This document shows positions 7,214-39,417 of a stretch of 42,893 bases of DNA, in pieces; position 1 is the first letter of the stretch; each line of letters starts with the position of its first letter. The DNA lies in NCBI GenBank assembly GCA_964351065.1, contig CAYGNA010000001.1, forward strand, positions 1 through 42,893, in the 5' to 3' direction. Made by a program: the position numbers and the translations under genes. Under the pieces are notes generated by a model. It saw only the letters and a program-made list of their open reading frames with translations. It was not told where the DNA came from and did no database searches. This DNA is from an uncultured Pseudomonadales bacterium. GTDB lineage: Bacteria; Pseudomonadota; Gammaproteobacteria; Pseudomonadales; Azotimanducaceae.

Positions 7214-8896
7214 TCAGGTTTTCTTTTCGAGTTGCCTCGTTACGTACCACTGTTGAAGAATAGACAGCAGGTTGTTGACGAGCCAATAGAGCACTAATCC
7301 GGAAGGGAACCAGAGGAAGAAGAAGGTGAACATGATTGGCATCAGTTTGAATATTTTCGCCTGCATGGGGTCGGGCGGTTCTGGCTGAAGCATTTGGGTA
7401 ACATACATTGAGATGCCCATGAGAATCGGCAGGACAAAGTAGGGATCCATATCCGACAGGTCGTGAATCCATAGCATAAATGGCGCCTGTCTCAGTTCAA
7501 CGCTTTCCAGCAGGGTCCAGTAGAGGGCAAGAAAAACAGGCATCTGCAGCAAAACGGGGAAGCAGCCACCCAGAGGATTGGCGCCTTCCTTTTTGTAGAG
7601 TTCCATCATCGCCTGGGAAAACTGTTGTCGATCGTCACCATAACGCTCTTTCAGCCTGGCCATTTCTGGCTGTAGCTTCCTCATCTTGGCCATTGAGCGG
7701 AAACTGGCTGCTGACAGCGGATACAGCAACGTCTTTACAATTACGGTGAGCAAAATAATAGCGACACCCCAGTTATTGACCACACCATGTATCAGGTTGA
7801 GCAGGTCAAACAGAGGCTGGGCCAGCCACCAGAGGAATCCATAGTCAACGGTTAGATCAAGCCCCGGGGTTATCTGCTCCAATCGATACTGGTCCTTTGG
7901 ACCTGCATAAAATTGTGCACCTATTGTGCCCTTGTCACCGGGCGCGACCGACTGAAGCGGTGACGTAAACTCGAAGAGGTACACATCCTGACCGTTTAGT
8001 TTTCTGGCCGTATAGGTATGCGTTTTACCGGCTTCTGGTATCCATGCACTCAGAAAGTAGTGCTGGACCATGGCGATATAACCGCCCTCTATGTTCTGCT
8101 GGTACCGTTCTTCTTCTATATCGTCAAATTGCAGTTTGGTATACGGGGAACCAGGCTGGAAGGTCGCGGCACCAACATATGGTTTTAAACCCATGCCGTT
8201 TTCATCGCTGAACACCGGACTTTCGCCGTTTCGTTTTATCTGGCCAAACAGCGCTGCGGTCCAGGGCGTGGCAGAATTGTTTTCTACGAGATAGTCGACG
8301 TTGATCAGGTAGTCGCCCCGGAAGAAGGTAAACCGTTTGACAAGCTTTATGCCGTCGACTTCTGGCAGGGTTAGGTCAACAGTCAGTTCGTTGTCGTTGC
8401 CAAGTTCATACACAGACTGCCTGGTCTGGAAGAGCGGTCTGCCTTCTGGTTTGTCAGTGCCGTTGGGGCCAACAAGTCCACTTTGAGCCGCATAATTGTT
8501 TCGGGGATCAACCAGGGGAAACGGGACATCGGGTGTGTCGATATGTTCCGGGAAGGCCGGCAGGAGCACATGCTCTATGTCGCCGCCATTACGATCTATC
8601 CTGATGTTGAGTACGTCAGTTTTAACTTCAATAAAACGGCTCGTATCCATTGTGGTAACAGCCGTTGTTGCTGGCGCTGTTCTTGCCGGCAACATTTCCG
8701 CCGCGAGAGGTATTTCATCAGACGCAACCACAGTACCGTCATCAGAAATATCCGGGATCGTATCAGCAGACGGCGCGGCTATCGCTGCTGGCTGCGATGT
8801 GGCCCCCCTGTCACCGTAGTCTTCGTTCCATGCCAGTACCAGCATGTAGGATGTTACAGCGAGGCCCAGCAGGATTAGGATTCGTTGGATGTCCAC
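7214..8896 (-). CDS. yidC: Membrane protein insertase YidC
   Basis: 560 aa with an N-terminal TM, a large periplasmic domain and the conserved C-terminal 5-TM core. Conserved rnpA-yidD-yidC-mnmE order. Confidence 0.95.
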   Translation of the reverse strand: MDIQRILILLGLAVTSYMLVLAWNEDYGDRGATSQPAAIAAPSADTIPDISDDGTVVASDEIPLAAEMLPARTAPATTAVTTMDTSRFIEVKTDVLNIRIDRNGGDIEHVLLPAFPEHIDTPDVPFPLVDPRNNYAAQSGLVGPNGTDKPEGRPLFQTRQSVYELGNDNELTVDLTLPEVDGIKLVKRFTFFRGDYLINVDYLVENNSATPWTAALFGQIKRNGESPVFSDENGMGLKPYVGAATFQPGSPYTKLQFDDIEEERYQQNIEGGYIAMVQHYFLSAWIPEAGKTHTYTARKLNGQDVYLFEFTSPLQSVAPGDKGTIGAQFYAGPKDQYRLEQITPGLDLTVDYGFLWWLAQPLFDLLNLIHGVVNNWGVAIILLTVIVKTLLYPLSAASFRSMAKMRKLQPEMARLKERYGDDRQQFSQAMMELYKKEGANPLGGCFPVLLQMPVFLALYWTLLESVELRQAPFMLWIHDLSDMDPYFVLPILMGISMYVTQMLQPEPPDPMQAKIFKLMPIMFTFFFLWFPSGLVLYWLVNNLLSILQQWYVTRQLEKKT

Positions 8897-8898
8897 GG

Positions 8899-9153
8899 TT
8901 ACTCCGTTGCAGCCGGTTTGGAGGAGCAGGAGTGGTCAGGGACATGGTCCACGCCTCCAGGATGAAAAGGGTGGCATTTGCCAACACGTTTAATGGCAAG
9001 AAAAGAGCCACGCAGGACACCATGAAGGCTAATCGCTTCTATGGCGTAACTGGAACATGAAGGGTAGAAACGACAGCGCTGTCCTAGTACCAGGCTTAAC
9101 GTTAACTGGTAAATCTTGAGCAGGTTAATCAGGACTGACTGCGGGATATTCAT
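8899..9153 (-). CDS. yidD: Membrane protein insertion efficiency factor YidD
   Basis: Conserved YidD motif ([15 protein letters not shown]…HPFHPGG). The ATG at 9151-9153 forms an ATGA overlap with the rnpA stop. The longest ORF starts at 9189. Confidence 0.85.
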
Positions 9154-9524
9154 GAAGGTTTCCAGCGCTTTGCCGCTAAAGCTGTCCACATTGCTTCCAG
9201 CGCCAAAAACAATTCAGTATTTGCGGCGTGCCGTGCAGGTGGTCTGGCAATGATAACAATATCGATTTTTTTTTCATTGCACGTTCGCCGAAATGATTCT
9301 TTTATAACGCGGCGGATCCTGTTTCGGTTTACAGCGTTGCCCGCGACTTTTTTACTGACCACAGTACCCATTCGACCAGCAGAGACCGGATTTGATGTAG
9401 CAAGCAACAGAAAAGGCGGTTTGGAAAACCGGAACTCCGTTTTGGAGAAAACCTGATCAAAATCGGATTTAGTCAGGAGGCGGAAGTGCCTTGGGAATCC
9501 TTCAGGCTGATGACTGGTTATCAG
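9150..9524 (-). CDS. rnpA: RNase P protein component RnpA (5' boundary uncertain, no canonical start)
   Basis: RnpA signature (…[17 protein letters not shown]…[24 protein letters not shown]). The longest ORF with a canonical start (TTG at 9407) removes the conserved N-terminal third. The frame is open up to 9617. CTG 9524-9522 and ATA 9521-9519 are the only plausible starts. Confidence 0.8.
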
Positions 9525-9655
9525 GCCGAGAGTACCTTGCGACCTTTGGCCCGACGTCTTTTCAACACCATTCGACCGGCTTTGGTCGCCATTCGTGAGC
9601 GGAAACCATGAGTACGCTTACGCTTCAATACGCTGGGTTGAAATGTTCTTTTCAT
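9521..9655 (-). CDS. rpmH: 50S ribosomal protein L34
   Basis: My own translation gives [44 protein letters not shown] (44 aa), a textbook L34. It falls below the ORF-track length cutoff. Confidence 0.95.
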
Positions 9656-9690
9656 CTTTATACACCGGAGACCGGAAAACAGGAGGCGCG

Positions 9691-9719
9691 ATTCTAAAGA
9701 AGAAGAGGCGATAGGTCAA
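9691..9719 (-). promoter_or_regulatory. Candidate sigma70 promoter of rpmH-rnpA
   Basis: Minus strand reads TTGACC (9719-9714), a 17-nt spacer, then TAGAAT (9696-9691). The -10 ends about 35 nt upstream of the rpmH ATG. Confidence 0.55.
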
Positions 9720-9983
9720 TTTTGTTTAAGGCCATTTTTTGTTTCGTGCTGCGTTCGGTTCGGTCTGGCCTGAACTTTTTTTGTGGGTTATTTGGGCTAC
9801 TTCATTTTTCTACAGAGTTTTGGCTACAGATAATAGAAGAAGATTTATATATATAGAAACTTGTTACTACTACTCTTATTAAGAGGGCCTGGCCTGTGGG
9901 TAGTTTGTATTACCCAGTGCTTTATCAGTAGGTTAGGCGATTTGAAAGTCGGTGGTCTTTCGGTTGATTAAGGGCGTGGTTCC

Positions 9984-9992
9984 TGTGGACAA
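9984..9992 (-). promoter_or_regulatory. DnaA box (TTGTCCACA, 1 mismatch)
   Basis: The plus strand reads TGTGGACAA. Confidence 0.5.
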
Positions 9993-10012
9993 CCTATGGA
10001 TGGTTACAAGGC

Positions 10013-10021
10013 TTATCCCCA
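10013..10021 (+). promoter_or_regulatory. DnaA box (TTATCCCCA, 1 mismatch)
   Basis: Direct read of the sequence. Confidence 0.45.
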
Positions 10022-10051
10022 CCCTGGCCGTGATCAGATAAATGTGAAATT

Positions 10052-10060
10052 TTATCCACA
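10052..10060 (+). promoter_or_regulatory. DnaA box (TTATCCACA, perfect consensus)
   Basis: Direct read of the sequence. Confidence 0.65.
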
Positions 10061-10276
10061 GGTTACACACAGGTTAACCACTGCATACTGACCGGATGTT
10101 AGACATAACTTATTGAAAAATAAGAAAAAGTATTTCACTTTTTTTGTTGTTAACAGTTGGCTTGTGGTTATGTTTGGGGTTACTATGGCGATCGTCAGCA
10201 AGGCGCTCTTATTTGGTTCCTGTCTGGTTGAAATCTCCAACACTACACAATAATAACGCAGTCTACCGGAGGATCT

Positions 10277-11602
10277 GTGGGGGCTTTAGTCTGGGAAAAA
10301 TGTCTGGATAGTTTGGAAGGCGAACTGACGTCCAGACAGTTCAATACGCTGATTCGGCCCCTACAGGCAGAAGCGACTGAGAACGAAATAAGATTGCTGG
10401 CGCCGAATAAGTATATTCGTGATCAGGTTTCAGATCAGTTGCTGCAAAGAATTATCGAACTGGCCCAGCAGAATGGCTCCGGGTCGGTTTCACTGCAGAT
10501 TGGTACAACCCGTCAGCGACCGCGTCGCAGTGATGAAAAGACATCGGTACCCGACTTTGGGAATCGAGACAGTTTTTATCCATTGCTCGATCTCAACAAG
10601 GAATTCACCTTTGATACCTTCGTAGAAGGCAGGTCAAACGAACTGGCGCGGGCGGCGGCTTTTCAGGTTGCCGAGAATATGGGCGCAACCTACAAGTGTC
10701 TGCTGCTTTACGGTGGGGTGGGATTGGGCAAGACTCACCTGATGCATGCTGTTGGTAATGCAATTGTCGAAAAGCATCCTGGTATTCGGGTCGCTTACAT
10801 GTACTCGCAGCGGTTTATGGAAGATATGGTTCGTGCTATCGAGCGAGGGGCCATGTCAGAGTTTACGCAGTACTATCGGTCTGTTGACCTTCTGCTGATG
10901 GATGATATTCAGTTTCTGGCCAAGGGTATGAAGTCCCAGGAAGAGTTCTTCCATGTTTTCAATAGGTTACAGGAAGATGGGAGCCAGATAGTGCTGACAT
11001 CGGATCGGTATCCAAAAGAGATAGAGGGGCTGGAAGAGCGCCTCAAGAGCCGATTTGTCTGGGGCATGACAGCGCCAATGGAGCCACCAGAGTTGGAGAC
11101 GCGGGTGGCGATCCTGATGAAAAAGGCACAAATGGAGCAAGTTAACCTGGCTCATGATGTAGCTTTCTTTATTGCTGAACGAATCAGGTCGAACGTTCGT
11201 GAACTGGAAGGGGCATTAAAACGCGTCAAGGCAAATGCACTTTTTACTGGTCGCGAGATTACGATCGATCAGGTAAAGGACGCGCTAAAAGATCTGATCG
11301 CTATTTCGGACCGACAGGTAGGGATCGAGAATATCCAGCGTACCGTGGCAGATTATTACAATATTCGTGTTGCAGACATGCATTCGAAGAAGCGTTCCAG
11401 GTCGGTAGCGAGGCCCAGGCAGATGGCAATGGCCCTGGCAAAAGAGCTCACCAGCCGCAGTCTGCCAGAAATAGGCGATTCATTTGGTGGTCGTGATCAC
11501 ACGACGGTGCTGCATGCCTGCCGCAAGATTGAAGAGCTAAAGGAAAGCATGCGGGACATCCGGGAAGATTATAACAACCTGTTGCGAACGCTCACGGGCT
11601 GA
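10277..11602 (+). CDS. dnaA: Chromosomal replication initiator DnaA
   Basis: 441 aa with a GTG start after a GGAGG RBS. Walker [11 protein letters not shown] and the C-terminal DNA-binding block ([11 protein letters not shown]). Confidence 0.96.
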
Positions 11603-11627: not shown

Positions 11628-12731
11628 ATGCGGTTAACAGTAAAACGGGAATCGCTTCTTGTGCCGCTGCAATTAGCGGCCGGGCTTGTAGGGCGCCGTC
11701 ACACGGTGCCGGTCCTGGGAAATCTGTTGCTTGATGTATCAGAGAACTCGTTGGTAATTACCGGCTCAGACAATGAGATAGAAATCAGCATCGCTACCCG
11801 GGATTTCTCCGCAGATGGTACTGATGCCACAACAGTACCAGCCCGTAAATTACTGGATCTCTGGCGAAATATGCCAGTGGGAGCAGAGGTAGAGCTCGAC
11901 TTTACTCAAGGGCATCTGGGGGTCAGCTTTGGCCGCTTTAAGTCCAGTCTCGCAACCATTCCCGCCTATGAGTTTCCTCTCGTTACGCCGTTATCTGCCG
12001 GTACACTTGTTTCCTTGCCTGCTGAGTCTCTGGGGTTACTACTGGATCGCTGTCGGTTTGCGATGGCGCAACAGGATGTCAGGTATTTTCTAAACGGCAT
12101 GCTCTTTGAGGTTATGGATAGCCAGCTTCGGGTCGTGGCTACAAATGGTCAACGTTTGGCCAGTACTTTTATTCCCGCTGAAGTATCGGTATCGGAGCCG
12201 AGGCAGTTTATAATTCCATCCAAGGGAGTAGCAGAGTTGGCGCGGGTATTTGCCAATGCAGAAGGGGATGTGACGCTTCATTTCTCCGAAAACCATCTGC
12301 GTGCCAAGGTGGGCGACGTTACCCTGACAACCAGTCTCATTGATGGCAAGTATCCCGATTACAGAAGAGCAATACCCACCACCGGCGTTGTAGATCTGCA
12401 GGGTAACAGACGAGAGCTTCGGGACGCGCTGGTGAGGACAGCAATTCTGTCAAATGAGATCTATCACCAGGTGGTCCTGGTATTGCGGCCAGGTGAATTG
12501 GTTTTCCGTGCGAGTAATCCCCTCCAGGAAGAGGCGGAAGAAGTGGTTGTTGTGGCGTACGAGGGTGAGGAGATGGAATTGGCTTTTAACCTTCGATATC
12601 TCCTTGATGTAATGGATGTGATGCATGGTGAAAAGATTCGACTTCAGGCTTCTGGCACCGCCGCGCCAGCGCTGTTGACGGATCCAGCTGACAACAGGTC
12701 ACTATTCGTTATCAGCCCAATGGTCTTATAG
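11628..12731 (+). CDS. Divergent DNA polymerase III beta sliding-clamp paralogue
   Basis: 367 aa, collinear over its full length with the neighbouring dnaN (roughly 45-50% identity by eye). It shares FAMAQQDVRYFLNGML exactly. It differs at pocket-region motifs (ATNGQRLA instead of ATDGHRLA; C-terminus SPMVL instead of MPMKL). Confidence 0.85.
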   Translation: MRLTVKRESLLVPLQLAAGLVGRRHTVPVLGNLLLDVSENSLVITGSDNEIEISIATRDFSADGTDATTVPARKLLDLWRNMPVGAEVELDFTQGHLGVSFGRFKSSLATIPAYEFPLVTPLSAGTLVSLPAESLGLLLDRCRFAMAQQDVRYFLNGMLFEVMDSQLRVVATNGQRLASTFIPAEVSVSEPRQFIIPSKGVAELARVFANAEGDVTLHFSENHLRAKVGDVTLTTSLIDGKYPDYRRAIPTTGVVDLQGNRRELRDALVRTAILSNEIYHQVVLVLRPGELVFRASNPLQEEAEEVVVVAYEGEEMELAFNLRYLLDVMDVMHGEKIRLQASGTAAPALLTDPADNRSLFVISPMVL

Positions 12732-12780
12732 CTTGCTATTACAGGATGTGAACACTTACTAACAAGGTTTGGTACCAAAA

Positions 12781-13877
12781 ATGAAATTGAAGCTTGATCG
12801 AGAAGCGTTGCTCCGTCCGCTCCAGCAGGTAGCAGGCGTCGTGGAGAGGCGACAGACGTTGCCCGTTCTTTCCAACGTTCTGCTGCAGGTAACAGCCGAA
12901 GGATTGTCGGTTACCGGCACCGATCTCGAAGTAGAGCTTATTGGGCGAGTAGTACTGGAGGCAGCCGAGCCTGGCGATGTGACAGTACCGGCTAGAAAGC
13001 TTCTGGATATTGTACGGGAATTACCCGACAAGGCAGAGGTTGAACTTGAATTTACAGATCAGCGATTGACGATCAAGTCGGGCCGGTTTCGCTCCGCGCT
13101 CTCAACGTTGCCCGCTGATGACTTTCCAACGGTAGATCGTTCTGCGACCGAAGTAACAACCAGCCTGAATGCAAAGGCGCTCAAGCGCCTTATAGACCGA
13201 ACCAGTTTTGCAATGGCGCAACAGGACGTCCGGTATTTCCTGAACGGTATGTTGCTTGAATTGGGTGGCGGCCATGTGAGAACAGTCGCAACGGACGGCC
13301 ACCGACTGGCAATGTCGAGCCTTGCCCTGGAAGGTGGAGCAGAAGAGGTGAGGCAGGTTATTGTACCTCGCAAGGGAGTTCTTGAACTGCAACGGTTGCT
13401 GAATGAACTCGATGGTGATGTAGAGGTAACCATTGGTTCCAATCACCTGTGTGCAAGTACCAGCGATTTTACGCTTACCACCAAATTGGTGGACGGTCGG
13501 TTCCCGGACTACGAACGTGTAGTTCCCAGAAACGGCGATAAAGTAGTGTTGGCGGATAAACAGGAGTTCAGGCAGGCACTTAGCAGGACGGCTATTCTGT
13601 CGAATGAGAAGTTTAGAGGGATTCGGGTGAATCTGTCATCAGGACAACTTCAATTGACAGCAAATAACCCTGAACAGGAAGAAGCTGAAGAAATCGTTTC
13701 GGTCGACTACGATGGTGGTGAGTTGGAGGTTGGTTTTAATGTTAGCTATATCCAGGATGTCCTGGGTGTTGTCGATGGTGATAAGGTTCGCATCACGTTG
13801 CACGACGGGAACAGTAGTGCGCTAATGGAAGAACCAGGCGACGACAATTCCGTGTTTGTTGTTATGCCAATGAAGCT

Positions 13878-13881
<4 letters not shown>
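12781..13881 (+). CDS. dnaN: DNA polymerase III subunit beta (orthologous dnaN)
   Basis: Very close to the E. coli and Pseudomonas beta subunit as I recall them (VVERRQTLPVLSNVLL, ATDGHRLA, AILSNEKFRG, NNPEQEEAEE, VVMPMKL). ATGA overlap with recF. ATG 12781 is preferred over the longest-ORF TTG at 12769. Confidence 0.95.
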
Positions 13882-21038: not shown

Positions 21039-21614
21039 ATGAAGCAACGCTGTGCCTGGTGTGGTGAGGATCCTCTGTATGTGGCTTATCACGACGAGGA
21101 ATGGGGGGTGCCGCTTCGCGATGAGCAGGCACTGTTTGAGTTCCTTGTTCTTGAGGGCGCCCAAGCGGGACTCAGCTGGATTACCGTACTGCGCAAACGC
21201 GAGAATTACCGCCGCGCGATGGACAATTTTGACCCGGAGAAGATCGCCAGGTACGACGAGAACAAGCTAAATCAATTACTGGGCGATACCGGTATTATCC
21301 GCAACAGGCGTAAGCTGAGCAGCGCGGTTCAAAACGCGAGAGCCTGTCTTGCTTTGCAGCAAGCCGGTACTTCTCTGGGAGAGCATCTGTGGCAGTTTGT
21401 TGACGGCAGGCCCGAGACGCATTTCTACCAATCTACCAACGAAGTTCCGGCAGCAACAGCAACCTCAGATAAATTGAGCAAGTCCCTTAAAGCTCTTGGA
21501 TTCAACTTTGTTGGTTCAACAATCTGTTATGCCCTCATGCAGGCGACAGGCATGGTTAATGATCATCTGGTCTCGTGCTATCGCCATGCTGACTGCCGTA
21601 AAATGGCCCCATGA
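21039..21614 (+). CDS. tag: DNA-3-methyladenine glycosylase I
   Basis: [25 protein letters not shown]… with a GGAG RBS. 191 aa. Confidence 0.92.
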
Positions 21615-22537
21615 AATTAAGTCATAGAGTTGCCGGATTCCTGATCTTTACCCTGATGAAGCTGATTGCCTTTATGCCGCTGGCCGTCAGCCAATTCATC
21701 GGTCGGTGGATAGGCCGTATCAGCTATTGGTTCAACTCGCGTGGCGCCAGGGTGACTATGACCAACCTGTCGGTCTGTTGCCCTGCTCTGGATGAAACAG
21801 AACGTCGTAATCTGGCAAGGTCCAGCATGGAGCATACGGGCCAGATGTTGATGGAAACCCCGGCATCCTGGTTGGGCAGTAGCACCAGGATTCGCGGCTG
21901 GATTGCGCATGTTGAAAATGAGCACCTGCTGAAGAATGCAATTTCGAGCGGTCGTGGCAGCATTATCATTCTGCCTCATATCGGCAACTGGGAAGTGATG
22001 AATGCCTACATGAATTTTACGGGAAGCGCCCACACTGCTCTTTACGCGCCGCCGAATCAGGACTATATGAAGGTTCTGATGGCGCATGTCAGATCCAGGT
22101 TTGGCAACGAGATTGTGCCGACGACAGTGAAGGGTCTAGCCACCCTCTATCACCGGTTGAAAGAGGGGAAACTGGTTTTTGTGCTACCCGACCAGGTGCC
22201 GGCGAGTGGTCAATTTGCACCGTTTTTTGGCATTGAGGCGCTCACTGACGTGCTGATTACCCGATTGATTCGCCGAACACCGGAGGTTATTGTTCTGAGT
22301 GTCGTCGTCAAGCGCCTGCCGCAAGCGAGGGGTTTTGACGTGCTATTTAATGAGGCGCATCCTGACATCTATAGCAAGGACCCCGCGATCGCGCTTGGCG
22401 CGATGAACAAAACTGTTGAGGCATGTGTGAGCCAGGCACCTGAACAGTACCAGTGGGAATACAAGCGCTTCAAGGAGCGGCCCGCTGGAGAATTGCGGCT
22501 CTACAATTATGATAACGAGCCCTGGACGCACCACTAG
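21611..22537 (+). CDS. LpxL/HtrB-family lipid A (Kdo2-lipid IVA) acyltransferase
   Basis: 308 aa with an N-terminal TM and the HIGNWE (HX4D/E-type) acyltransferase motif. ATGA overlap with tag. Position matches htrB in Pseudomonas-like genomes. Confidence 0.8.
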   Translation: MKLSHRVAGFLIFTLMKLIAFMPLAVSQFIGRWIGRISYWFNSRGARVTMTNLSVCCPALDETERRNLARSSMEHTGQMLMETPASWLGSSTRIRGWIAHVENEHLLKNAISSGRGSIIILPHIGNWEVMNAYMNFTGSAHTALYAPPNQDYMKVLMAHVRSRFGNEIVPTTVKGLATLYHRLKEGKLVFVLPDQVPASGQFAPFFGIEALTDVLITRLIRRTPEVIVLSVVVKRLPQARGFDVLFNEAHPDIYSKDPAIALGAMNKTVEACVSQAPEQYQWEYKRFKERPAGELRLYNYDNEPWTHH

Positions 22538-22595: not shown

Positions 22596-22679
22596 CTGCT
22601 CAGTAATCTGCTCAGTAATCTGCTCAGTAATCTGCTCAGTACTCTGCTCGGTACTCTGCTCAGTACTCTGCTCAGCACT
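22596..22679. repeat. Tandem 12-bp repeat, 7 units (CTGCTCAGTAAT x3, then CTGCTCAGTACT-type variants x4)
   Basis: Direct read of the sequence. It lies in the 140-bp gap between the convergent lpxL-like and trkH genes. The last unit overlaps the trkH stop codon. Confidence 0.95.
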
Positions 22680-24126
22680 ATTTTCGCCAAAACATTGGAG
22701 TAAACAGCACGAGCAGCGTGAAAATCTCCAATCGTCCGAGCATCATGGCGAAGCAAAGGATGATCTTGGCCGTGTCGCTGATGTCACCATAATGAAGAGT
22801 GACATCACCCAGGCCAGGGCCGAGGTTATTGATGGTTGCACCAACAGCTGAAAAAGCCGTCAGGAAATCCATACCGCACGCGACCATAGCCAGTAGCATG
22901 AACAGGAAGATGATGACGTAGATGGAAAAAAACCCCCATACGGCTTCAACAATCGAAGTTGAAACAGGTCTGCGATTTAGCTTGATGGGAAAGATGGCGT
23001 TGGGGTGAATCAGGCGATGAATCTCCCGGAGGCCCTGCTTGCAGATTAGCATCACGCGCATCACCTTCATCCCGCCTCCGGTAGAACCGGCACAAGCACC
23101 CGTAAAAGCACCAAGAAAGATAAGGTACGGCAACATGCTTGGCCACTCGGCAAAATTGTCAGTGGCAAACCCGGTTGTGGTAAAGATGGAGACGACAGTA
23201 AACGCGGCCATCCGGAGCGCTGTTGCAAGAGGATAGGTGCTGGTTGCGGTTAGCACGGCGGTAACAACCAAAATGGCAATACCCAGTATCATCAGGTAGA
23301 ACCTGACCTCATCGTCCTGCAGGTAGTGCAGCACAGTCCGCTCCTTCCAGGCGAAGAAATGAAGGCCAAAATTGATGCCTGCCAGCACCATAAAGAAAAT
23401 TGCTATGGCTTCTATAAGCGGCGAATCAAAGTAACCTATGCTGGCGTCATGGGTTGAGAAACCACCAATTGCCACAGTGGAAAATGAATGGCAGAGAGCA
23501 TCAAACCAGCTCATACCGGCCGCCCAGTATGCGAGACCACAGGCGATGGTAATGCCCACGTAGATTGACCAAAGCGCCAGCGCCGTTTGTTTGATGCGCG
23601 GTGTAAGCTTACTGTCCTTAACGGGTCCTGGCGTTTCAGCCCTGTATAACTGCATACCTCCAATTCCCAGCATTGGCAGCACTGCCACGGCAAGGACAAT
23701 AATTCCCATACCACCCAGCCACTGCAATTGCTGGCGGTAATACAGCACCGAGGCTGGCAGGCTATCGATATTGGTCAGTACGGTGGCACCCGTTGTTGTC
23801 AGCCCGGAAAAAGACTCAAACAGTGCATCAGCTATAGAGAGGTTGATACCCGCTGACTGAATGAGCGGCAGTCCACCAAAGGTGCCAAGTGCTGTGTAAA
23901 ACAGGAAGGTGATCAAAAACCCGTCCCGGGTTCGCATCTCTTCTTTATAACCCGCAAACAGGCCAAACAGAATGCCGCCCGAGACCAGCGTAATCAGAAA
24001 AGTGTCAATAAAGATAATGGCCACGCCGTCATCGAACAGCCAGGAGAAAAACAGTGGCGGTAACATGGTAACGCTGAACATCATCAGCAGAGCACCAAGT
24101 ATCCTGAGAGCGACGCGGAGATGCAT
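22678..24126 (-). CDS. trkH: Trk-system potassium uptake protein TrkH
   Basis: 482-aa polytopic protein with TrkH-type repeated M1-P-M2 segments (TTTG, GGFST). Adjacent to trkA. Confidence 0.92.
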   Translation of the reverse strand: MHLRVALRILGALLMMFSVTMLPPLFFSWLFDDGVAIIFIDTFLITLVSGGILFGLFAGYKEEMRTRDGFLITFLFYTALGTFGGLPLIQSAGINLSIADALFESFSGLTTTGATVLTNIDSLPASVLYYRQQLQWLGGMGIIVLAVAVLPMLGIGGMQLYRAETPGPVKDSKLTPRIKQTALALWSIYVGITIACGLAYWAAGMSWFDALCHSFSTVAIGGFSTHDASIGYFDSPLIEAIAIFFMVLAGINFGLHFFAWKERTVLHYLQDDEVRFYLMILGIAILVVTAVLTATSTYPLATALRMAAFTVVSIFTTTGFATDNFAEWPSMLPYLIFLGAFTGACAGSTGGGMKVMRVMLICKQGLREIHRLIHPNAIFPIKLNRRPVSTSIVEAVWGFFSIYVIIFLFMLLAMVACGMDFLTAFSAVGATINNLGPGLGDVTLHYGDISDTAKIILCFAMMLGRLEIFTLLVLFTPMFWRK

Positions 24127-34232: not shown

Positions 34233-34260
34233 TTGAGAAAAGGATCGTCGCTGCTATAAT
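34233..34260 (+). promoter_or_regulatory. Candidate sigma70 promoter about 250 nt upstream of coxB
   Basis: TTGAGA (34233-34238), a 16-nt spacer, then TATAAT (34255-34260). Confidence 0.4.
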
Positions 34261-34509
34261 TGCCCGGCGCTGATACCCTCCCTGGTAAATGGTCTCTCCG
34301 CGTTAGCCTGCTTCAACATGAACGAAGTAGAACAATCTAAAAATAATAATTGGGAAATGTGGTCGTCTCGAATGGTACAAGTGCGGCTCCTGATATTGAC
34401 GCCTAACCAGCGCGATTGTCATTGGCCCGGCGAGATAACCAAACGCGCCTGCTGAACCTGTACAATCCCTGTTGTCAGGAAAATTGATTTAAAAAATTTG
34501 GAGTATCGG

Positions 34510-35649
34510 ATGGAAAGAGCGAAGCAGTTCGTATGGCCAGTTGCTTTGATGTCGCTGCTGTACAGTGGTGCAGCCACAGCAAGTTGGTCGGCGCTCAACA
34601 TGCGCGAAGGGGTTACTGAGATCAGTCGGCAGGTTTACTCACTGCACATGATCATCTTCCTGGTCTGCGTTGTAATCGGCGTAATCGTATTTGGCGTCAT
34701 GATTGTTTCAATGCTGATGCACAGGAAATCGCTCGGCGTTACCCCCGCCACATTTCATGACAATACCCGGCTCGAAATCCTCTGGACTGTCATCCCGATT
34801 GTCATCCTGTTGGTAATGGCAGTGCCCGCAACTACCACGCTGAATGCCATGTACGATGCTGGTGAACCTGACATCGACATTGAGGTGCGCGGATACCAGT
34901 GGAAATGGCAGTACACCTATCTGGACGATGACCCGATGAAGGAGGTCAAGTTCATGAGTGCGCTCCTCACGCCGCAGGAAGAAATTTACAACCAGGCAGC
35001 GAAACGAGAGCAATATCTGCTGGATGTCGACAACCCCCTGGTAATCCCTATCAACAAGAGAGTCCGTTTTCTGGTGACATCACAGGATGTCATTCACTCT
35101 TTCTGGGTTCCGGACTTCGCTGTCAAGCGCGATGCAATTCCCGGCTTTATTCATGAGGCATGGACGGTTGTTGAAAAGCCCGGTATTTACCGAGGCCAGT
35201 GTGCAGAGCTTTGTGGCAAGGATCATGGATTCATGCCGATTGTGGTTCGCGCCGTTGAACAAGCCGAATACGACGCCTGGATTGAGGAGAAGCGTGCTGA
35301 GGCTGCCGCCGTCTTCGAGATTGTTGGCAAGGAGTGGACCATGGAAGAACTCATGGTCAAGGGTGAAGAAGTTTACCTGCGCAACTGCGCAACCTGTCAC
35401 CAGGCGAACGGTCAGGGTATCCCACCTGCTTTCCCGACGCTGGTTGGTTCGGCAATCGCAACGGGTCCAATCGCAGGTCACATTGATATTATTCTGCATG
35501 GCAAGGCCGGTACCGCCATGCAGGCTTTTGCAGCGCAGTTGAATGCAGCAGAGATCGCCGCGGTGACCACGTATGAGCGAAATGCCTGGGGCAACAATGT
35601 GGGTGATATGGTTCAACCACGCGAAATCAACGCAATGATGGGCGAATAG
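34510..35649 (+). CDS. coxB: Cytochrome c oxidase subunit II with a fused C-terminal cytochrome c domain
   Basis: CuA motif HSFWVP…CAELCGKDHGFM and haem-c motif CATCH. The ATG at 34510 follows a GGAG RBS. The longest ORF starts at TTG 34498. Confidence 0.93.
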   Translation: MERAKQFVWPVALMSLLYSGAATASWSALNMREGVTEISRQVYSLHMIIFLVCVVIGVIVFGVMIVSMLMHRKSLGVTPATFHDNTRLEILWTVIPIVILLVMAVPATTTLNAMYDAGEPDIDIEVRGYQWKWQYTYLDDDPMKEVKFMSALLTPQEEIYNQAAKREQYLLDVDNPLVIPINKRVRFLVTSQDVIHSFWVPDFAVKRDAIPGFIHEAWTVVEKPGIYRGQCAELCGKDHGFMPIVVRAVEQAEYDAWIEEKRAEAAAVFEIVGKEWTMEELMVKGEEVYLRNCATCHQANGQGIPPAFPTLVGSAIATGPIAGHIDIILHGKAGTAMQAFAAQLNAAEIAAVTTYERNAWGNNVGDMVQPREINAMMGE

Positions 35650-36740
35650 GAGATTATCGATGAGCGCAGTAATTGAAGAACACCATCACGACGACCATCA
35701 TCATGGCCCGGACAAAGGCATTATGCGTTGGGTGCTGACAACCAACCATAAGGACATCGGTACCCTTTACCTGTGGTTCAGCTTTGCGATGTTCCTGACG
35801 GGTGGTTTGATGGCGCTGGTCATCCGCGCCGAGCTGTTCCAGCCTGGCCTGCAGATTGTTGAGCCAGCATTTTTTAACCAGATGACCACCATGCATGGTT
35901 TGATCATGGTGTTTGGGGCGGTCATGCCGGCTTTTGTTGGCCTTGCCAACTGGCTTGTACCAATGATGATTGGCGCACCTGATATGGCGCTGCCCCGCAT
36001 GAACAACTACAGCTTCTGGATTCTGCCGTTTGCGTTTGCCATGCTGCTTAGCACACTATTCATGCAAGGAGGCGCACCCAACTTCGGCTGGACATTCTAC
36101 GCACCACTCTCGACCGAATACGCACCCGCCATGCAGGCTTTTGCAGCGCAGTTGAATGCAGCAGAGATCGCCGCGGTGACCACGTATGAGCGAAATGCCT
36201 GGGGCAACAATGTGGGTGATATGGTTCAACCACGCGAAATCAACGCAATGATGGGCGAATAGGAGATTATCGATGAGCGCAGTAATTGAAGAACACCATC
36301 ACGACGACCATCATCATGGCCCGGACAAAGGCATTATGCGTTGGGTGCTGACAACCAACCATAAGGACATCGGTACCCTTTACCTGTGGTTCAGCTTTGC
36401 GATGTTCCTGACGGGTGGTTTGATGGCGCTGGTCATCCGCGCCGAGCTGTTCCAGCCTGGCCTGCAGATTGTTGAGCCAGCATTTTTTAACCAGATGACC
36501 ACCATGCATGGTTTGATCATGGTGTTTGGGGCGGTCATGCCGGCTTTTGTTGGCCTTGCCAACTGGCTTGTACCAATGATGATTGGCGCACCTGATATGG
36601 CGCTGCCCCGCATGAACAACTACAGCTTCTGGATTCTGCCGTTTGCGTTTGCCATGCTGCTTAGCACACTATTCATGCAAGGAGGCGCACCCAACTTCGG
36701 CTGGACATTCTACGCACCACTCTCGACCGAATACGCACCC
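35515..36740 (+). repeat. Direct tandem duplication, 2 x 613 bp (35515-36127 and 36128-36740)
   Basis: The two copies read identically base for base. The shadow ORFs at 35654-35896 / 36267-36509 and at 35767-36006 / 36380-36619 are identical. CC microhomology at the junction. Confidence 0.95.
35660..36262 (+). CDS. Chimeric ORF created by the duplication: CoxA residues 1-156 fused in frame to the last 44 residues of CoxB
   Basis: Its first 156 aa are identical to the 36273 ORF. The tail AMQAFAAQLNAAEIAAVTTYERNAWGNNVGDMVQPREINAMMGE is identical to the coxB C-terminus. It carries the native coxA RBS. Confidence 0.8.
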   Translation: MSAVIEEHHHDDHHHGPDKGIMRWVLTTNHKDIGTLYLWFSFAMFLTGGLMALVIRAELFQPGLQIVEPAFFNQMTTMHGLIMVFGAVMPAFVGLANWLVPMMIGAPDMALPRMNNYSFWILPFAFAMLLSTLFMQGGAPNFGWTFYAPLSTEYAPAMQAFAAQLNAAEIAAVTTYERNAWGNNVGDMVQPREINAMMGE

Positions 36741-37874
36741 CCCAGCGTCACCTTCTTTATCTTCGCTGTCCATATCATGGGCGCGTCTTCGATTATGGGT
36801 TCCATTAACGTCATCGTGACGATCCTGAACATGCGTGCCCCCGGCATGACGCTGATGAAAATGCCGCTGTTTGTCTGGACATGGCTGATTACCGCTTACC
36901 TGCTGATTGCTGTAATGCCAGTACTGGCCGGTGTTGTGACAATGATGCTGATGGATATTCACTTTGGCACAGCATTCTTTAGTGCGGCCGGCGGTGGTGA
37001 TCCTGTGCTGTTCCAGCACGTGTTCTGGTTCTTCGGTCACCCGGAAGTTTACATCATGATCCTGCCGGCGTTTGGCGTGGTTTCCGCCATCATCCCGACA
37101 TTCGCGCGCAAGCAACTGTTTGGCTATGCGTCGATGGTCTATGCAACCGCGTCGATTGCGTTTCTGTCCTTTATTGTTTGGGCACACCACATGTTTACAG
37201 TGGGTATGCCGCTGGCTGGTGAGCTTTACTTCATGTACGCCACGATGTTGATTGCTGTCCCAACCGGGGTAAAGGTGTTCAACTGGGTTGCGACCATGTG
37301 GCAAGGCGCCATGACGTTTGAAACACCCATGCTGTTTGCGATTGCCTTCGTGATTCTGTTCACCATTGGTGGCTTCTCCGGTCTCATGCTTGCCATGGCA
37401 CCTGCTGACTTCCAGTATCACGACACCTACTTTGTCGTGGCCCACTTCCACTACGTCCTGGTGCCTGGCTCTGTCTTCTCTATTATGGCGGCTGTGTATT
37501 ACTGGCTGCCCAAGTGGACCGGCAATATGTACGACGAGAAGCTTGGTAAGACACACTTCTGGCTTTCTTTCATTGGCGTGAACGTTACATTCTTCCCACA
37601 GCACTTCACCGGTCTTGCCGGTATGCCACGAAGGATTCCTGACTACGCGCTTCAGTTTGCCGACTACAACATGATTTCCAGCTGTGGGGCGTTCCTGTTT
37701 GGCTTTAGCCAGCTGCTCTTCCTCTTCATTATCATCAAGACGATCAGGGGCGGAAAGAAAGCCACGGATCGTGTTTGGGAAGGCGCGCATGGCCTTGAGT
37801 GGACACTGGCGTCACCAGCGCCTTATCACTCATTCAGTACCCCGCCAACTGATATGAAAGAGGCACATGGCTAA
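36273..37874 (+). CDS. coxA: Cytochrome c oxidase subunit I (aa3-type)
   Basis: 533 aa, 12-TM haem-copper oxidase with typical blocks (NHKDIGTLY, WFFGHPEVY, HHMF). Confidence 0.96.
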   Translation: MSAVIEEHHHDDHHHGPDKGIMRWVLTTNHKDIGTLYLWFSFAMFLTGGLMALVIRAELFQPGLQIVEPAFFNQMTTMHGLIMVFGAVMPAFVGLANWLVPMMIGAPDMALPRMNNYSFWILPFAFAMLLSTLFMQGGAPNFGWTFYAPLSTEYAPPSVTFFIFAVHIMGASSIMGSINVIVTILNMRAPGMTLMKMPLFVWTWLITAYLLIAVMPVLAGVVTMMLMDIHFGTAFFSAAGGGDPVLFQHVFWFFGHPEVYIMILPAFGVVSAIIPTFARKQLFGYASMVYATASIAFLSFIVWAHHMFTVGMPLAGELYFMYATMLIAVPTGVKVFNWVATMWQGAMTFETPMLFAIAFVILFTIGGFSGLMLAMAPADFQYHDTYFVVAHFHYVLVPGSVFSIMAAVYYWLPKWTGNMYDEKLGKTHFWLSFIGVNVTFFPQHFTGLAGMPRRIPDYALQFADYNMISSCGAFLFGFSQLLFLFIIIKTIRGGKKATDRVWEGAHGLEWTLASPAPYHSFSTPPTDMKEAHG

Positions 37875-37913
37875 CCCTTCGGGGTTAGCTCACCACTTTT
37901 TTACGAGGTAGTT

Positions 37914-38468
37914 ATGGACTCTGGTAATCAAGCGTCAACAAAGTCTGCCCTGAAACTGCTCCTGGTTGTGTTTGGGATGTTTGGCTTTGGTTTTGCACTG
38001 GTTCCTCTCTACGATGTGATTTGCGACATCACCGGGCTGAATGGCAAGACAGGCGACCAGTACGTTGTCGATGAGACGATAGAGGTTCAGGAAGACAGGG
38101 TGGTGACAATCCAGTTCCTGACAAACAACAACGACGGCATGCCCTGGGAGTTTCGCCCGGATATGCGTTCGCTGCAGGTCCACCCCGGAGATATGAACGT
38201 CGCAACCTTCTTTGCGAGGAACCCCGTGGATGGTGCAATGACTGCTCAGGCGATACCGAGTGTTACACCCGGCTATGCTGCCCAGTTCCTGCACAAGACC
38301 GAGTGTTTCTGCTTCGAACAGCAAAAACTTGCAGGTGGCGAGTCCATAGATATGCCGGTACGGTTTATCATCGATAAAGAACTGCCGGCTGATATCACCA
38401 GAATCACTTTAAGCTATACACTTTTTGATATAACGGATCACTCCAAAGGCGGGTCAGCCGCTGACTAG
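37914..38468 (+). CDS. ctaG: Cytochrome c oxidase assembly protein CtaG/Cox11
   Basis: 184 aa with an N-terminal TM and the Cox11 motif CFCF. Confidence 0.9.
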   Translation: MDSGNQASTKSALKLLLVVFGMFGFGFALVPLYDVICDITGLNGKTGDQYVVDETIEVQEDRVVTIQFLTNNNDGMPWEFRPDMRSLQVHPGDMNVATFFARNPVDGAMTAQAIPSVTPGYAAQFLHKTECFCFEQQKLAGGESIDMPVRFIIDKELPADITRITLSYTLFDITDHSKGGSAAD

Positions 38469-38514
38469 GGTTACTTTACGCCAGGGAATTTCCGGAAGGG
38501 AGAAATAAAAAACA

Positions 38515-39417
38515 ATGTCCACTCAAGACACTTACGAAAGCTATTACGTCCCTCATAACAGCAAGCTGCCGATTTTTGCATCCCTCGGTATATTTCTGAC
38601 CGTATACGGGATTGGCACTATTTTGAACCATATGACTGCCGGAGTGGAAAGCTCGCTCGGTGTCTGGATCCTGCTGTTTGGTGGCCTGATCATGGGCACA
38701 ACGCTGTTCTTCTGGTTTTCTGCGGTCATCGAGGAAAACCACAAGAAACTCTACAGTGACCAGATGCACAGGTCTTACGTCTGGGCAATGAGCTGGTTTA
38801 TCTTTTCAGAAGTCATGTTCTTTAGTGCCTTCTTTGGTGCCCTGTTCTACATTCGCATGTTCAACGTTGATTGGTTGGCCGGCGAAGGTAATCGTGGACC
38901 ATCCGACATGCTGTGGCCAGATTTCAAACCGGTATGGCCAATGATGGAGACACCCGATCCATCCAAGTTTCCAGGCCCAAAGGAACTTGTTAGTCCATGG
39001 GGGTTGCCGCTCCTGAATACAGTACTGCTGGTGACGTCGAGTGTGACGATCACGTTTGCCCACCATGGCGTAAAAGAAAACAACCGCAAGAAGCTTGTTA
39101 ACTGGCTGGGGCTAACGATTTTACTGGGTTTGATCTTTTTGGGTGTCCAGGCCTACGAGTACCACCATGCCTACACCGAGCTGGGCTTGACGCTTAACGC
39201 GGGTATTTACGGCACGACCTTCTTTATGCTGACGGGTTTCCACGGCGCGCACGTGACACTGGGCACGTTTATGCTGATCGTGATGTTCTTCAGGGCGTTA
39301 AAGGGGCACTTCTCTTCAGATGACTGTTTTGGCTTCGAAGCGTCGTCCTGGTATTGGCACTTCGTGGATGTAGTTTGGCTTGGTCTGTTTATTTTTGTGT
39401 ACGTGCTGGGCGGTTAG
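38515..39417 (+). CDS. coxC: Cytochrome c oxidase subunit III
   Basis: 300 aa, 7-TM, with the conserved C-terminal blocks (FHGAHV…, WYWHFVDVVW). Confidence 0.93.
   Translation: MSTQDTYESYYVPHNSKLPIFASLGIFLTVYGIGTILNHMTAGVESSLGVWILLFGGLIMGTTLFFWFSAVIEENHKKLYSDQMHRSYVWAMSWFIFSEVMFFSAFFGALFYIRMFNVDWLAGEGNRGPSDMLWPDFKPVWPMMETPDPSKFPGPKELVSPWGLPLLNTVLLVTSSVTITFAHHGVKENNRKKLVNWLGLTILLGLIFLGVQAYEYHHAYTELGLTLNAGIYGTTFFMLTGFHGAHVTLGTFMLIVMFFRALKGHFSSDDCFGFEASSWYWHFVDVVWLGLFIFVYVLGG

Follow-up and report, generated by a model that had tools for sequence, protein, structure and literature searches.

The window analysed here, a stretch of 42,893 bp with 0 N, carries an operon for an aa3-type cytochrome c oxidase in the order coxB-coxA-ctaG-coxC (Table 1). 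The genes examined are all full length when compared with their family models, with no broken or frameshifted genes among them. CoxB scores 201 bits against TIGR02866 (cut-off 147.7) and contains the Pfam domains COX2_TM and COX2 and a cytochrome c domain at residues 283-355, with a CuA motif at residue 231 and a CATCH motif at residue 293. CoxA reaches 709.3 bits against TIGR02891 (CtaD_CoxA; cut-off 670.75) over profile positions 1-502 of 504. The promoter-like site listed 5′ of coxB should be read against a total number of such sites in the region that equals the shuffle expectation.

Table 1. Positions of the features discussed at the oxidase locus
Feature	Position	Strand	Basis or remark
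Promoter-like site 5′ of coxB (TTGAGA, 16-nt spacer, TATAAT; 11/12 matches, with TG)	34233..34260	+	Consensus match only
Intact coxB, 379 aa (subunit II, cytochrome c domain at the C-terminus)	34510..35649	+	ATG start with GGAG RBS; alternative TTG start at 34498
Duplication unit, copy 1: last 44 codons and stop of coxB, 10-nt spacer, first 156 codons of coxA	35515..36127	+	String comparison, repeat search
CoxA′-CoxB′ chimera, 200 aa	35660..36262	+	CoxA residues 1-156 followed in the same frame by CoxB residues 336-379
Novel junction, 2-nt CC microhomology; same CC at 35513-35514	36126..36127	+	Left extension 2, right 0
Duplication unit, copy 2, 613/613 identical to copy 1	36128..36740	+	String comparison, repeat search
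Intact coxA, subunit I, 533 aa	36273..37874	+	TIGR02891, 709.3 bits
ctaG/cox11 assembly factor	37914..38468	+	NF003465, 229.7 bits
coxC, subunit III	38515..39417	+	Profile match

A perfect repeat across the coxB-coxA boundary

A 613-bp unit that runs from the end of coxB into coxA is present twice, as direct, head-to-tail copies that abut with nothing between them. The initial annotation had described this duplication as perfect and had proposed a check for base differences between the copies; an exact string comparison found 0 mismatches in 613 positions. A match of this length cannot be due to chance, and in a repeat search the 613-spaced pair was the sole long repeat within the window. The match extends 2 nt farther to the left (CC at 35513-35514 and again at 36126-36127) and 0 nt to the right, so that the repeat comes to 615 nt when the microhomology is included, and the CC microhomology first noticed at the junction is real.

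The content of the unit is also as originally claimed, since the codon arithmetic adds up: 132 nt (44 coxB codons), 3 nt (the stop), 10 nt (the spacer), and 468 nt (156 coxA codons) make 613. The spacer itself is GAGATTATCG (10 nt), and the GGAG overlaps the coxB stop. Between the two copies the DNA reads GCACCC/GCCATG at 36127/36128; ACCGAATACGCACCCGCCATGCAGGCTTTTG is an example of a 31-mer that crosses this junction. The open reading frames confirm that coxB is intact upstream and coxA intact downstream. Both are kept because any tandem duplication with its ends in two adjacent genes does so.

The chimeric reading frame

The junction is in frame, and the 200-aa CoxA′-CoxB′ chimera predicted for this locus does exist as an open reading frame. 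Without a single difference, its residues 1-156 repeat CoxA and its residues 157-200 the C-terminal 44 residues of CoxB; the sequence at the fusion is STEYAP/AMQAFAAQ, and the peptide STEYAPAMQAFAAQ spans it. The native context is kept at both starts, with the 25 nt 5′ of intact coxA identical to the 25 nt 5′ of the chimera start. In the other two junction frames, the open reading frame would stop 8 or 19 codons past the junction.

Subunit I has an established topology of 12 helices. The CoxA part of the chimera comprises the His-rich N-terminus and transmembrane helices I-III, with the breakpoint just before helix IV, so that the N-terminal helices first ascribed to it can be made precise as three. 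Its alignment to bovine COX1 stops at about residue 138. Against TIGR02891 it scores 161.8 bits, far under the cut-off of 670.75, and only profile positions 1-152 are covered. Histidines are confined to the N-terminal tract, His30, and His79, and the ligands of helices VI, VII, and X are absent; such a protein would keep the helix II histidine and be without the other ligands of haem a, haem a3, and CuB. The 44-aa tail contains no CXXCH haem-attachment motif, the CATCH of CoxB (residue 293) lying before the point at which the tail starts (residue 336), and when searched alone against Pfam it matched no family at E<=1, and so no class I cytochrome c domain (PF00034 / PF13442). The protein is predicted to have its N-terminus in the cytoplasm and its 44-aa tail in the periplasm, with three transmembrane helices between them.

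In a collection of 5.8 billion protein clusters, the chimera stands as a singleton. Other hits that covered 87-90 % of it (P0028, P0063, and others) were considered as second chimeras and rejected, as they are CoxA alignments of low identity that continue into the tail.

Neither feature of the junction is remarkable, because an in-frame junction has a probability of 1/3 and a microhomology of at least 2 nt one of 0.16. As a sign of selection, the reading frame deserves little weight; coxA would retain its own RBS in any frame.

Single-copy relatives and independent contigs of the strain

A comparison with related genomes had also been proposed at the outset. All of the related loci that retain the upstream region (79/79) carry coxB and coxA once each, separated by a short spacer, and none has the duplication; an internal repeat of 80 bp or more was found in 0 of the 80 related loci fetched. 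Judged from this distribution, the duplication is derived and not ancestral. Junction 27- to 36-mers gave 0 matches in GTDB representative genomes. They also gave 0 matches in JGI metagenome contigs, a collection that had 0 matches to a species-specific 24-mer (coxB stop, spacer, and coxA start) as well and therefore cannot speak to the junction question.

Public assemblies outside the window gave no exact match to the chimera, CoxA, CoxB, or CoxC; CtaG alone was matched. Its exact protein sequence links the window to two independent Logan contigs, L081 and L082. L081 (ERR3534985, short-read) is 100 % identical to window positions 36318-38623, a length of 2.3 kb. It starts inside the unit and crosses the 3′ boundary at 36740/36741 without a graph branch, although it is a low-coverage contig that covers one boundary only and possibly comes from another population. 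Logan contigs come from a de Bruijn graph with k=31, and no 31-mer occurs in them twice (PMC12424806). The unbranched course of L081 argues against a fixed duplication in the ERR3534985 population, and to judge by this contig, the duplication is apparently missing from same-strain reads obtained independently. No contig reaches from unique coxB into unique coxA. Gene products cut at the predicted branch points (35515-35649 and 36711-37874) are not on record, a weak negative; ERR3534985 is a low-coverage run, and the contigs of the strain there are only 1.4-2.3 kb. A literature search found no publications on runs ERR3534985 and ERR3534981.

Origin of the duplication

The initial annotation had offered three explanations, namely, a recent unstable duplication, population heterogeneity, and an artefact, and the same ones remain after testing. 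We favor a very recent, homology-independent tandem duplication of 613 bp, private or polymorphic and close to neutral, and we give this reading a probability of about 0.5. At the level of sequence, the copies are perfect and head to tail, share 2 nt of microhomology, and have no homology in their flanks, which is the signature of a homology-independent duplication. In one recent study, a lack of homology was defined as the absence of any stretch shared by the breakpoints that is at least 35 bp long at 92 % or above, with 0-4 nt of microhomology (preprint 10.64898/2026.05.22.727201). In the window, the copies are adjacent and direct, the relatives are single copy, and the 200 nt to each side of the ancestral breakpoints show no extended homology, with a best local match of 8 nt. 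An origin by homologous recombination between flanking repeats was rejected for this lack of breakpoint homology.

We imagine that the duplication formed without homologous recombination, either during replication, by template switching or a slipped misalignment, or by illegitimate end joining, between two CC dinucleotides 613 bp apart. The sequenced clone, or a fraction of the source population, would carry it, and it would not be fixed in the lineage. Perfect repeats of 613 bp should be a substrate for RecA-dependent unequal exchange, and the duplication would probably be gone long before its copies diverge; the copies may be identical because loss comes before divergence is possible. While it lasts, the operon mRNA would be 613 nt longer with no new terminator, and no terminator-like site was found within the unit. 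Translation would proceed through coxB, then use the duplicated native RBS and start codon of coxA to make the 200-aa chimera, and then continue with intact coxA. Oxidase expression is likely to be near normal because the context upstream of intact coxA is unchanged (coxB-type stop, 10-nt spacer, and GGAG). The chimera seems to be a non-functional by-product, probably cleared by membrane quality control, and the event would be a nearly neutral passenger and not a regulatory device.

Events of this kind are already known. In Pseudomonas fluorescens SBW25, duplication junctions have 0-3 bp of microhomology and no recombination signature (preprint 10.64898/2026.05.22.727201), and duplications without endpoint homology are heterogeneous within populations (PMC7661048). 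The window is like these homology-independent bacterial duplications in its head-to-tail copies, a microhomology within 0-3 nt, and a lack of flanking repeats, and members of the class are expected to be unstable, identical, and heterogeneous in the population. Published cases, however, are mostly tens to hundreds of kb long, selected for dosage, and verified by reads and junction PCR, whereas the one described here is only 613 bp, has no complete gene and no obvious selectable benefit, and is known from contig sequence alone. Spontaneous tandem duplications with short junctions in Salmonella and E. coli are reportedly covered in a review by Reams and Roth. If real, the duplication would be a textbook case of a transient, homology-independent event caught before loss or divergence, showing that in-frame fusion by-products can arise while both parental genes stay intact. 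It would carry little weight for biology, and nothing suggests a new biological system or an evolved or functional feature.

Almost as likely, though a little under even odds, is that the genome is single copy at coxB-coxA and that the second copy was made in vitro or in silico. A chimeric molecule may have formed (e.g., by MDA or PCR template switching) and been amplified, so that it recurred in the reads; a few chimeric reads may have opened a graph loop that was traversed by a paired-end repeat resolver; or two contigs with a 613-bp overlap may have been joined end to end with the overlap left unmerged. A single-cell MDA library would make a chimera more probable, and unitig output of the MEGAHIT type cannot hold an exact 613-bp repeat. 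Perfect identity, an in-frame junction, and 2-nt microhomology are equally expected from an artefact. Copies that are 100 % identical fit such an origin, as does the confinement of junction and chimera to one deposited contig across GTDB representatives, JGI metagenome contigs, and 5.8 billion protein clusters. So, too, do the unbranched passage of L081, an independent assembly of the same strain, past the 3′ boundary of the unit, the lack of recorded contigs starting at the predicted branch points, and the position of the junction, which is biologically arbitrary, inside two essential-domain coding regions, in a unit without a complete gene.

Several considerations weigh against an artefact. 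De Bruijn graph assemblers cannot output a junction whose k-mers are missing from the reads; a contig made by one of them would mean that junction-bearing molecules existed in the library. K-mer graph assemblers moreover need junction k-mers in the reads at nontrivial depth, and it is rare for random chimeric reads to occur more than once. In other respects the contig is clean, with 0 N, no frameshifted genes, and no further long repeat, which is not the picture of a poor assembly. L081 comes from a low-coverage run, covers one boundary, and may not represent the source population of the contig. Finally, an in-frame junction with a native stop-spacer-start arrangement fits a selected duplication slightly better, yet this is a 1-in-3 coincidence.

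False duplications are said to be an error class discussed for vertebrate genome assemblies. The window resembles them in having a perfectly identical adjacent copy in one assembly only that is apparently absent from independent data. The classical forms, often found beside gaps, stem from haplotypes left unmerged or from contig ends that overlap. The contig has neither a gap nor an N, and its organism is haploid; here an artefact could only have come about by a chimeric-read loop or an unmerged overlap. In that case the finding becomes a data-quality matter, with a spurious 200-aa "cytochrome c oxidase subunit I" gene already in protein databases as a singleton cluster. Either way, the locus should not be read as encoding a new oxidase subunit or a regulatory device.

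It is very improbable that the lineage modulates how its aa3 oxidase is assembled or expressed by gaining and losing the 613-bp unit, with the CoxA′-CoxB′ fragment as an assembly modulator or dominant-negative subunit: the in-frame chimera with its native RBS, the predicted placing of the CoxB-derived tail in the periplasm, its normal location, the RecA reversibility expected of perfect 613-bp repeats, and the apparent presence/absence difference between the contig and L081, which is compatible with heterogeneity, are permissive only, while the duplication occurs in 0 of the 79 relatives retaining the upstream region, no flanking repeats could regenerate it at a useful frequency, formation at 2-nt microhomology would be rare and effectively unrepeatable, the unit has no complete gene and hence no dosage effect, the tail has neither CXXCH nor a domain match, and the fragment scores far under the subunit I cut-off. 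The suggestion of an amplification-type switch on oxidase expression thus finds no support, given the lack of a complete gene and of flanking homology, the absence from 79 relatives, and the apparent absence from the same-strain read set. In Burkholderia thailandensis, bet hedging depends on a RecA-dependent duplication of 208.6 kb and 157 genes between two IS2-like elements, with demonstrated phenotypes (PMC9946442). The window shares with that system a tandem duplication that would be resolvable by RecA and whose copy number could vary in a population, but it has none of the features of a phase-variable switch, namely, flanking repeats, complete genes in the unit, and conservation in relatives. 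Just as improbable is the proposal that the duplication is real and polymorphic in a natural population of marine Pseudomonadales and that the co-translated CoxA(1-156)-CoxB(336-379) membrane fragment measurably interferes with or tunes aa3 oxidase assembly; if it were true, a RecA-resolvable, reversible 613-bp duplication would be a natural source of respiratory heterogeneity.

Short CoxA N-terminal open reading frames also occur on long public contigs, and these were considered as analogous duplications and rejected. In L083 (Pseudomonas sp. MM221 OX352324.1) and L084 (JGI 3300050343), coxA is split into 180+354 aa and 235+310 aa, respectively, and neighboring genes are split too. These error-prone long-read assemblies are like the window in having a short CoxA N-terminal open reading frame directly 5′ of the remaining coxA. 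They are simple frameshift splits with no repeated DNA, whereas in the window the N-terminal part of CoxA is truly present twice.

The duplicated unit and its chimeric reading frame

By exact string comparison, the two copies of the 613-bp unit agree at 613/613 positions, the perfect tandem duplication that the initial annotation had described. Identity extends 2 nt leftward (CC, the junction microhomology it had also noted) and 0 nt rightward, and in a repeat scan of the 42,893-bp window the pair, at a spacing of 613, was the sole long repeat. Arithmetic likewise reproduces the proposed composition: 132 nt holding the last 44 coxB codons, the TAG stop, a 10-nt spacer, and 468 nt holding the first 156 coxA codons. 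The duplication is present in the deposited record and was accurately described.

Positions of features in the window
Feature	Positions	Strand	Remarks
yidC	7214-8896	-	
Lower-GC gap	~9000-10276		GC 0.46; between yidC and dnaA
dnaA	10277-11602	+	
dnaN pair (sliding clamp)	11628-12731 and 12769-13881		both full-length, tandem; between dnaA and recF
lpxL-like acyltransferase gene	21611-22537	+	
12-nt tandem array TCTGCTCAGTAA	22595-22675		6.8 copies, 95 % matches
trkH	22678-24126	-	
coxB, intact	34510-35649		
Unit, copy 1	35515-36127		
CoxA'-CoxB' chimera	35660-36262	+	
Unit, copy 2	36128-36740		
coxA, intact	36273-37874		

Since 613 mod 3 is 1, which equals the frame offset of coxB versus coxA, the first coxA start (35660) reads across the junction into the coxB frame. 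The predicted 200-aa chimera holds up: residues 1-156 match CoxA and 157-200 the CoxB C-terminus residue for residue, ending at the duplicated coxB stop. It scores 161.8 bits against the curated NCBIfam model of subunit I (cut-off, 670.75). The CoxA breakpoint aligns near residue 138 of bovine COX1. A hydropathy scan gives three transmembrane segments in the CoxA fragment (~36-60, 75-102, and 117-135), and the next one in intact CoxA begins at residue 158; the chimera therefore keeps helices I-III plus the P-side loop preceding helix IV. Its His79 corresponds to the histidine in helix II of bovine COX1, the haem a ligand, and every downstream ligand is missing. The tail, CoxB residues 336-379, starts just ahead of the conserved Met of GTAMQAF; it does not include the CATCH motif (CoxB residue 293) and matched no Pfam family when searched alone.

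The 25 nt upstream of the ATGs of the chimera and of intact coxA are identical and no terminator-like site was found within the unit, so intact coxA retains its native translational context. Until reads are checked, the 200-aa "subunit I" ORF is best regarded as a by-product of the duplication, or possibly as an artefact. At the CoxA N terminus (36273-36332, copied at 35660-35719), a His-rich extension, MSAVIEEHHHDDHHHGPDKG, precedes the conserved core; CoxA of the closest relatives aligns from residue 1, with EEHHHDDH used as search pattern. This extension may be a metal-binding tail.

Recent duplication or artefact

We put at about one-half the probability that the tandem duplication is real, very recent, and independent of homology. 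It would have formed at the CC, either where replication switched template or through illegitimate joining; the sequenced clone, or some of the population, would carry it, and it would be lost in a RecA-dependent manner, with the 613-bp perfect repeats as substrate. It would be expected to vanish long before a single substitution could arise in 1.2 kb; perfectly matching copies are then expected and hence uninformative.

RecA-mediated unequal exchange between repeats is excluded as the origin, because no extended homology was found within 200 nt either side of the two ancestral breakpoints (best local match, 8 nt). Chance alone would give a 2-nt microhomology in 16 % of random joins, and 1 join in 3 would fall in frame. 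In Pseudomonas, junctions that have 0-3 bp of microhomology and lack flanking repeats have been documented (10.64898/2026.05.22.727201), and PMC7661048 describes duplications whose endpoints share no homology and which vary within populations and are quickly lost.

The possibility of an artefact is a serious one, to which we give a little under even odds: a chimeric molecule may have been amplified, chimeric reads may have opened a loop in the graph, or two contigs overlapping by 613 bp may have been left unmerged. Graph assemblers cannot invent junction k-mers and the contig is otherwise clean, points that count for a real duplication and against an artefact. In favor of an artefact are the restriction of the junction to the deposited contig and the behavior of L081, one of two Logan contigs found through the exact CtaG protein. 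L081 (ERR3534985, 2,306 bp) and L082 (ERR3534981) align without a mismatch to window 36318-38623 and 37631-39031, respectively. Identity of 100 % over 2.3 kb and 1.4 kb places the same strain in the public raw data of two independent runs.

Logan contigs are built with k=31 from k-mers seen at least 2 times, with SPAdes-like graph simplification, and the 31-mers of one accession are all distinct by construction (PMC12424806). A junction at flank-like depth would make the graph fork at the last shared 30-mer, so that an end of L081 is expected at ~36711-36741. L081 does not end there; it begins 190 nt within the unit and crosses the 3' boundary (36740|36741) into unique coxA. Edge-truncated products of contigs starting at both predicted branch points were not on record. 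Given low strain coverage (contigs of 1.4-2.3 kb), a single boundary, and runs that may not be the contig's source, we take L081 to lower the odds of a fixed duplication in that population roughly ten-fold; a private or polymorphic duplication and an artefact are not separated by it.

The reversible, amplification-type switch suggested at first is very improbable, as is a functional duplication switch of any kind: the unit lacks flanking repeats and holds no complete gene, the duplication is not conserved among related loci, and none of the features that define known duplication-based phase variation (PMC9946442) is present. In biological terms this is either an ordinary, transient duplication or an error, and it does not represent a novel type of system.

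Relatives and public collections

The nearest genomes are MAGs of uncultured Pseudomonadales and "Ca. Azotimanducaceae" (CoxA identity, 92-94 %; DNA, ~77-78 %). The comparison with related genomes that the initial annotation had proposed gave coxB, a short spacer, and then a single coxA in 79 of 80 loci, the remaining locus having no upstream region; internal repeats of at least 80 bp occurred in 0/80. The junction sequence had no match in 185,579 species-representative genomes or in 241 million JGI metagenome records. A search of 5.8 billion protein clusters left the chimera as a singleton, with no second protein covering both halves. The duplication is neither ancestral, conserved, nor recurrent.

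Some long public contigs carry short ORFs for the CoxA N terminus; these were considered as analogous duplications and rejected as frameshift-split genes. On a Pseudomonas sp. MM221 contig (OX352324.1, 5001-6589) and a JGI contig (3300050343, 3812-6600), each of coxA, coxB, coxC, SURF1, and prlC is broken into a pair of neighboring ORFs, a pattern typical of uncorrected long-read indel errors. Such splitting accounts for many "partial" CoxA entries in the protein database.

Gene neighborhood

The window is one complete contig as deposited at NCBI, and the proteins it encodes are recorded on that single contig. It carries yidC, dnaA, two dnaN genes, recF, and gyrB; GC skew changes sign across 7214-11602, and this is the chromosomal origin region. 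About 20 kb downstream lie prlC, coxB-coxA-ctaG-coxC, a SURF1 gene, a PA0111-family gene, and ctaB (haem O synthase), in that order. CoxB, CoxA, and CtaG each exceed curated NCBIfam cut-offs in a profile search.

The two dnaN products share 47 % protein identity, the second being more canonical (TIGR00663, 349 versus 260 bits), and one 53-nt stretch is still 83 % identical in DNA. The pair stems from either an old duplication or the acquisition of a paralogue and has no relation to the cox duplication. The lpxL-like gene and trkH converge, and the TCTGCTCAGTAA array fills the space between their 3' ends.
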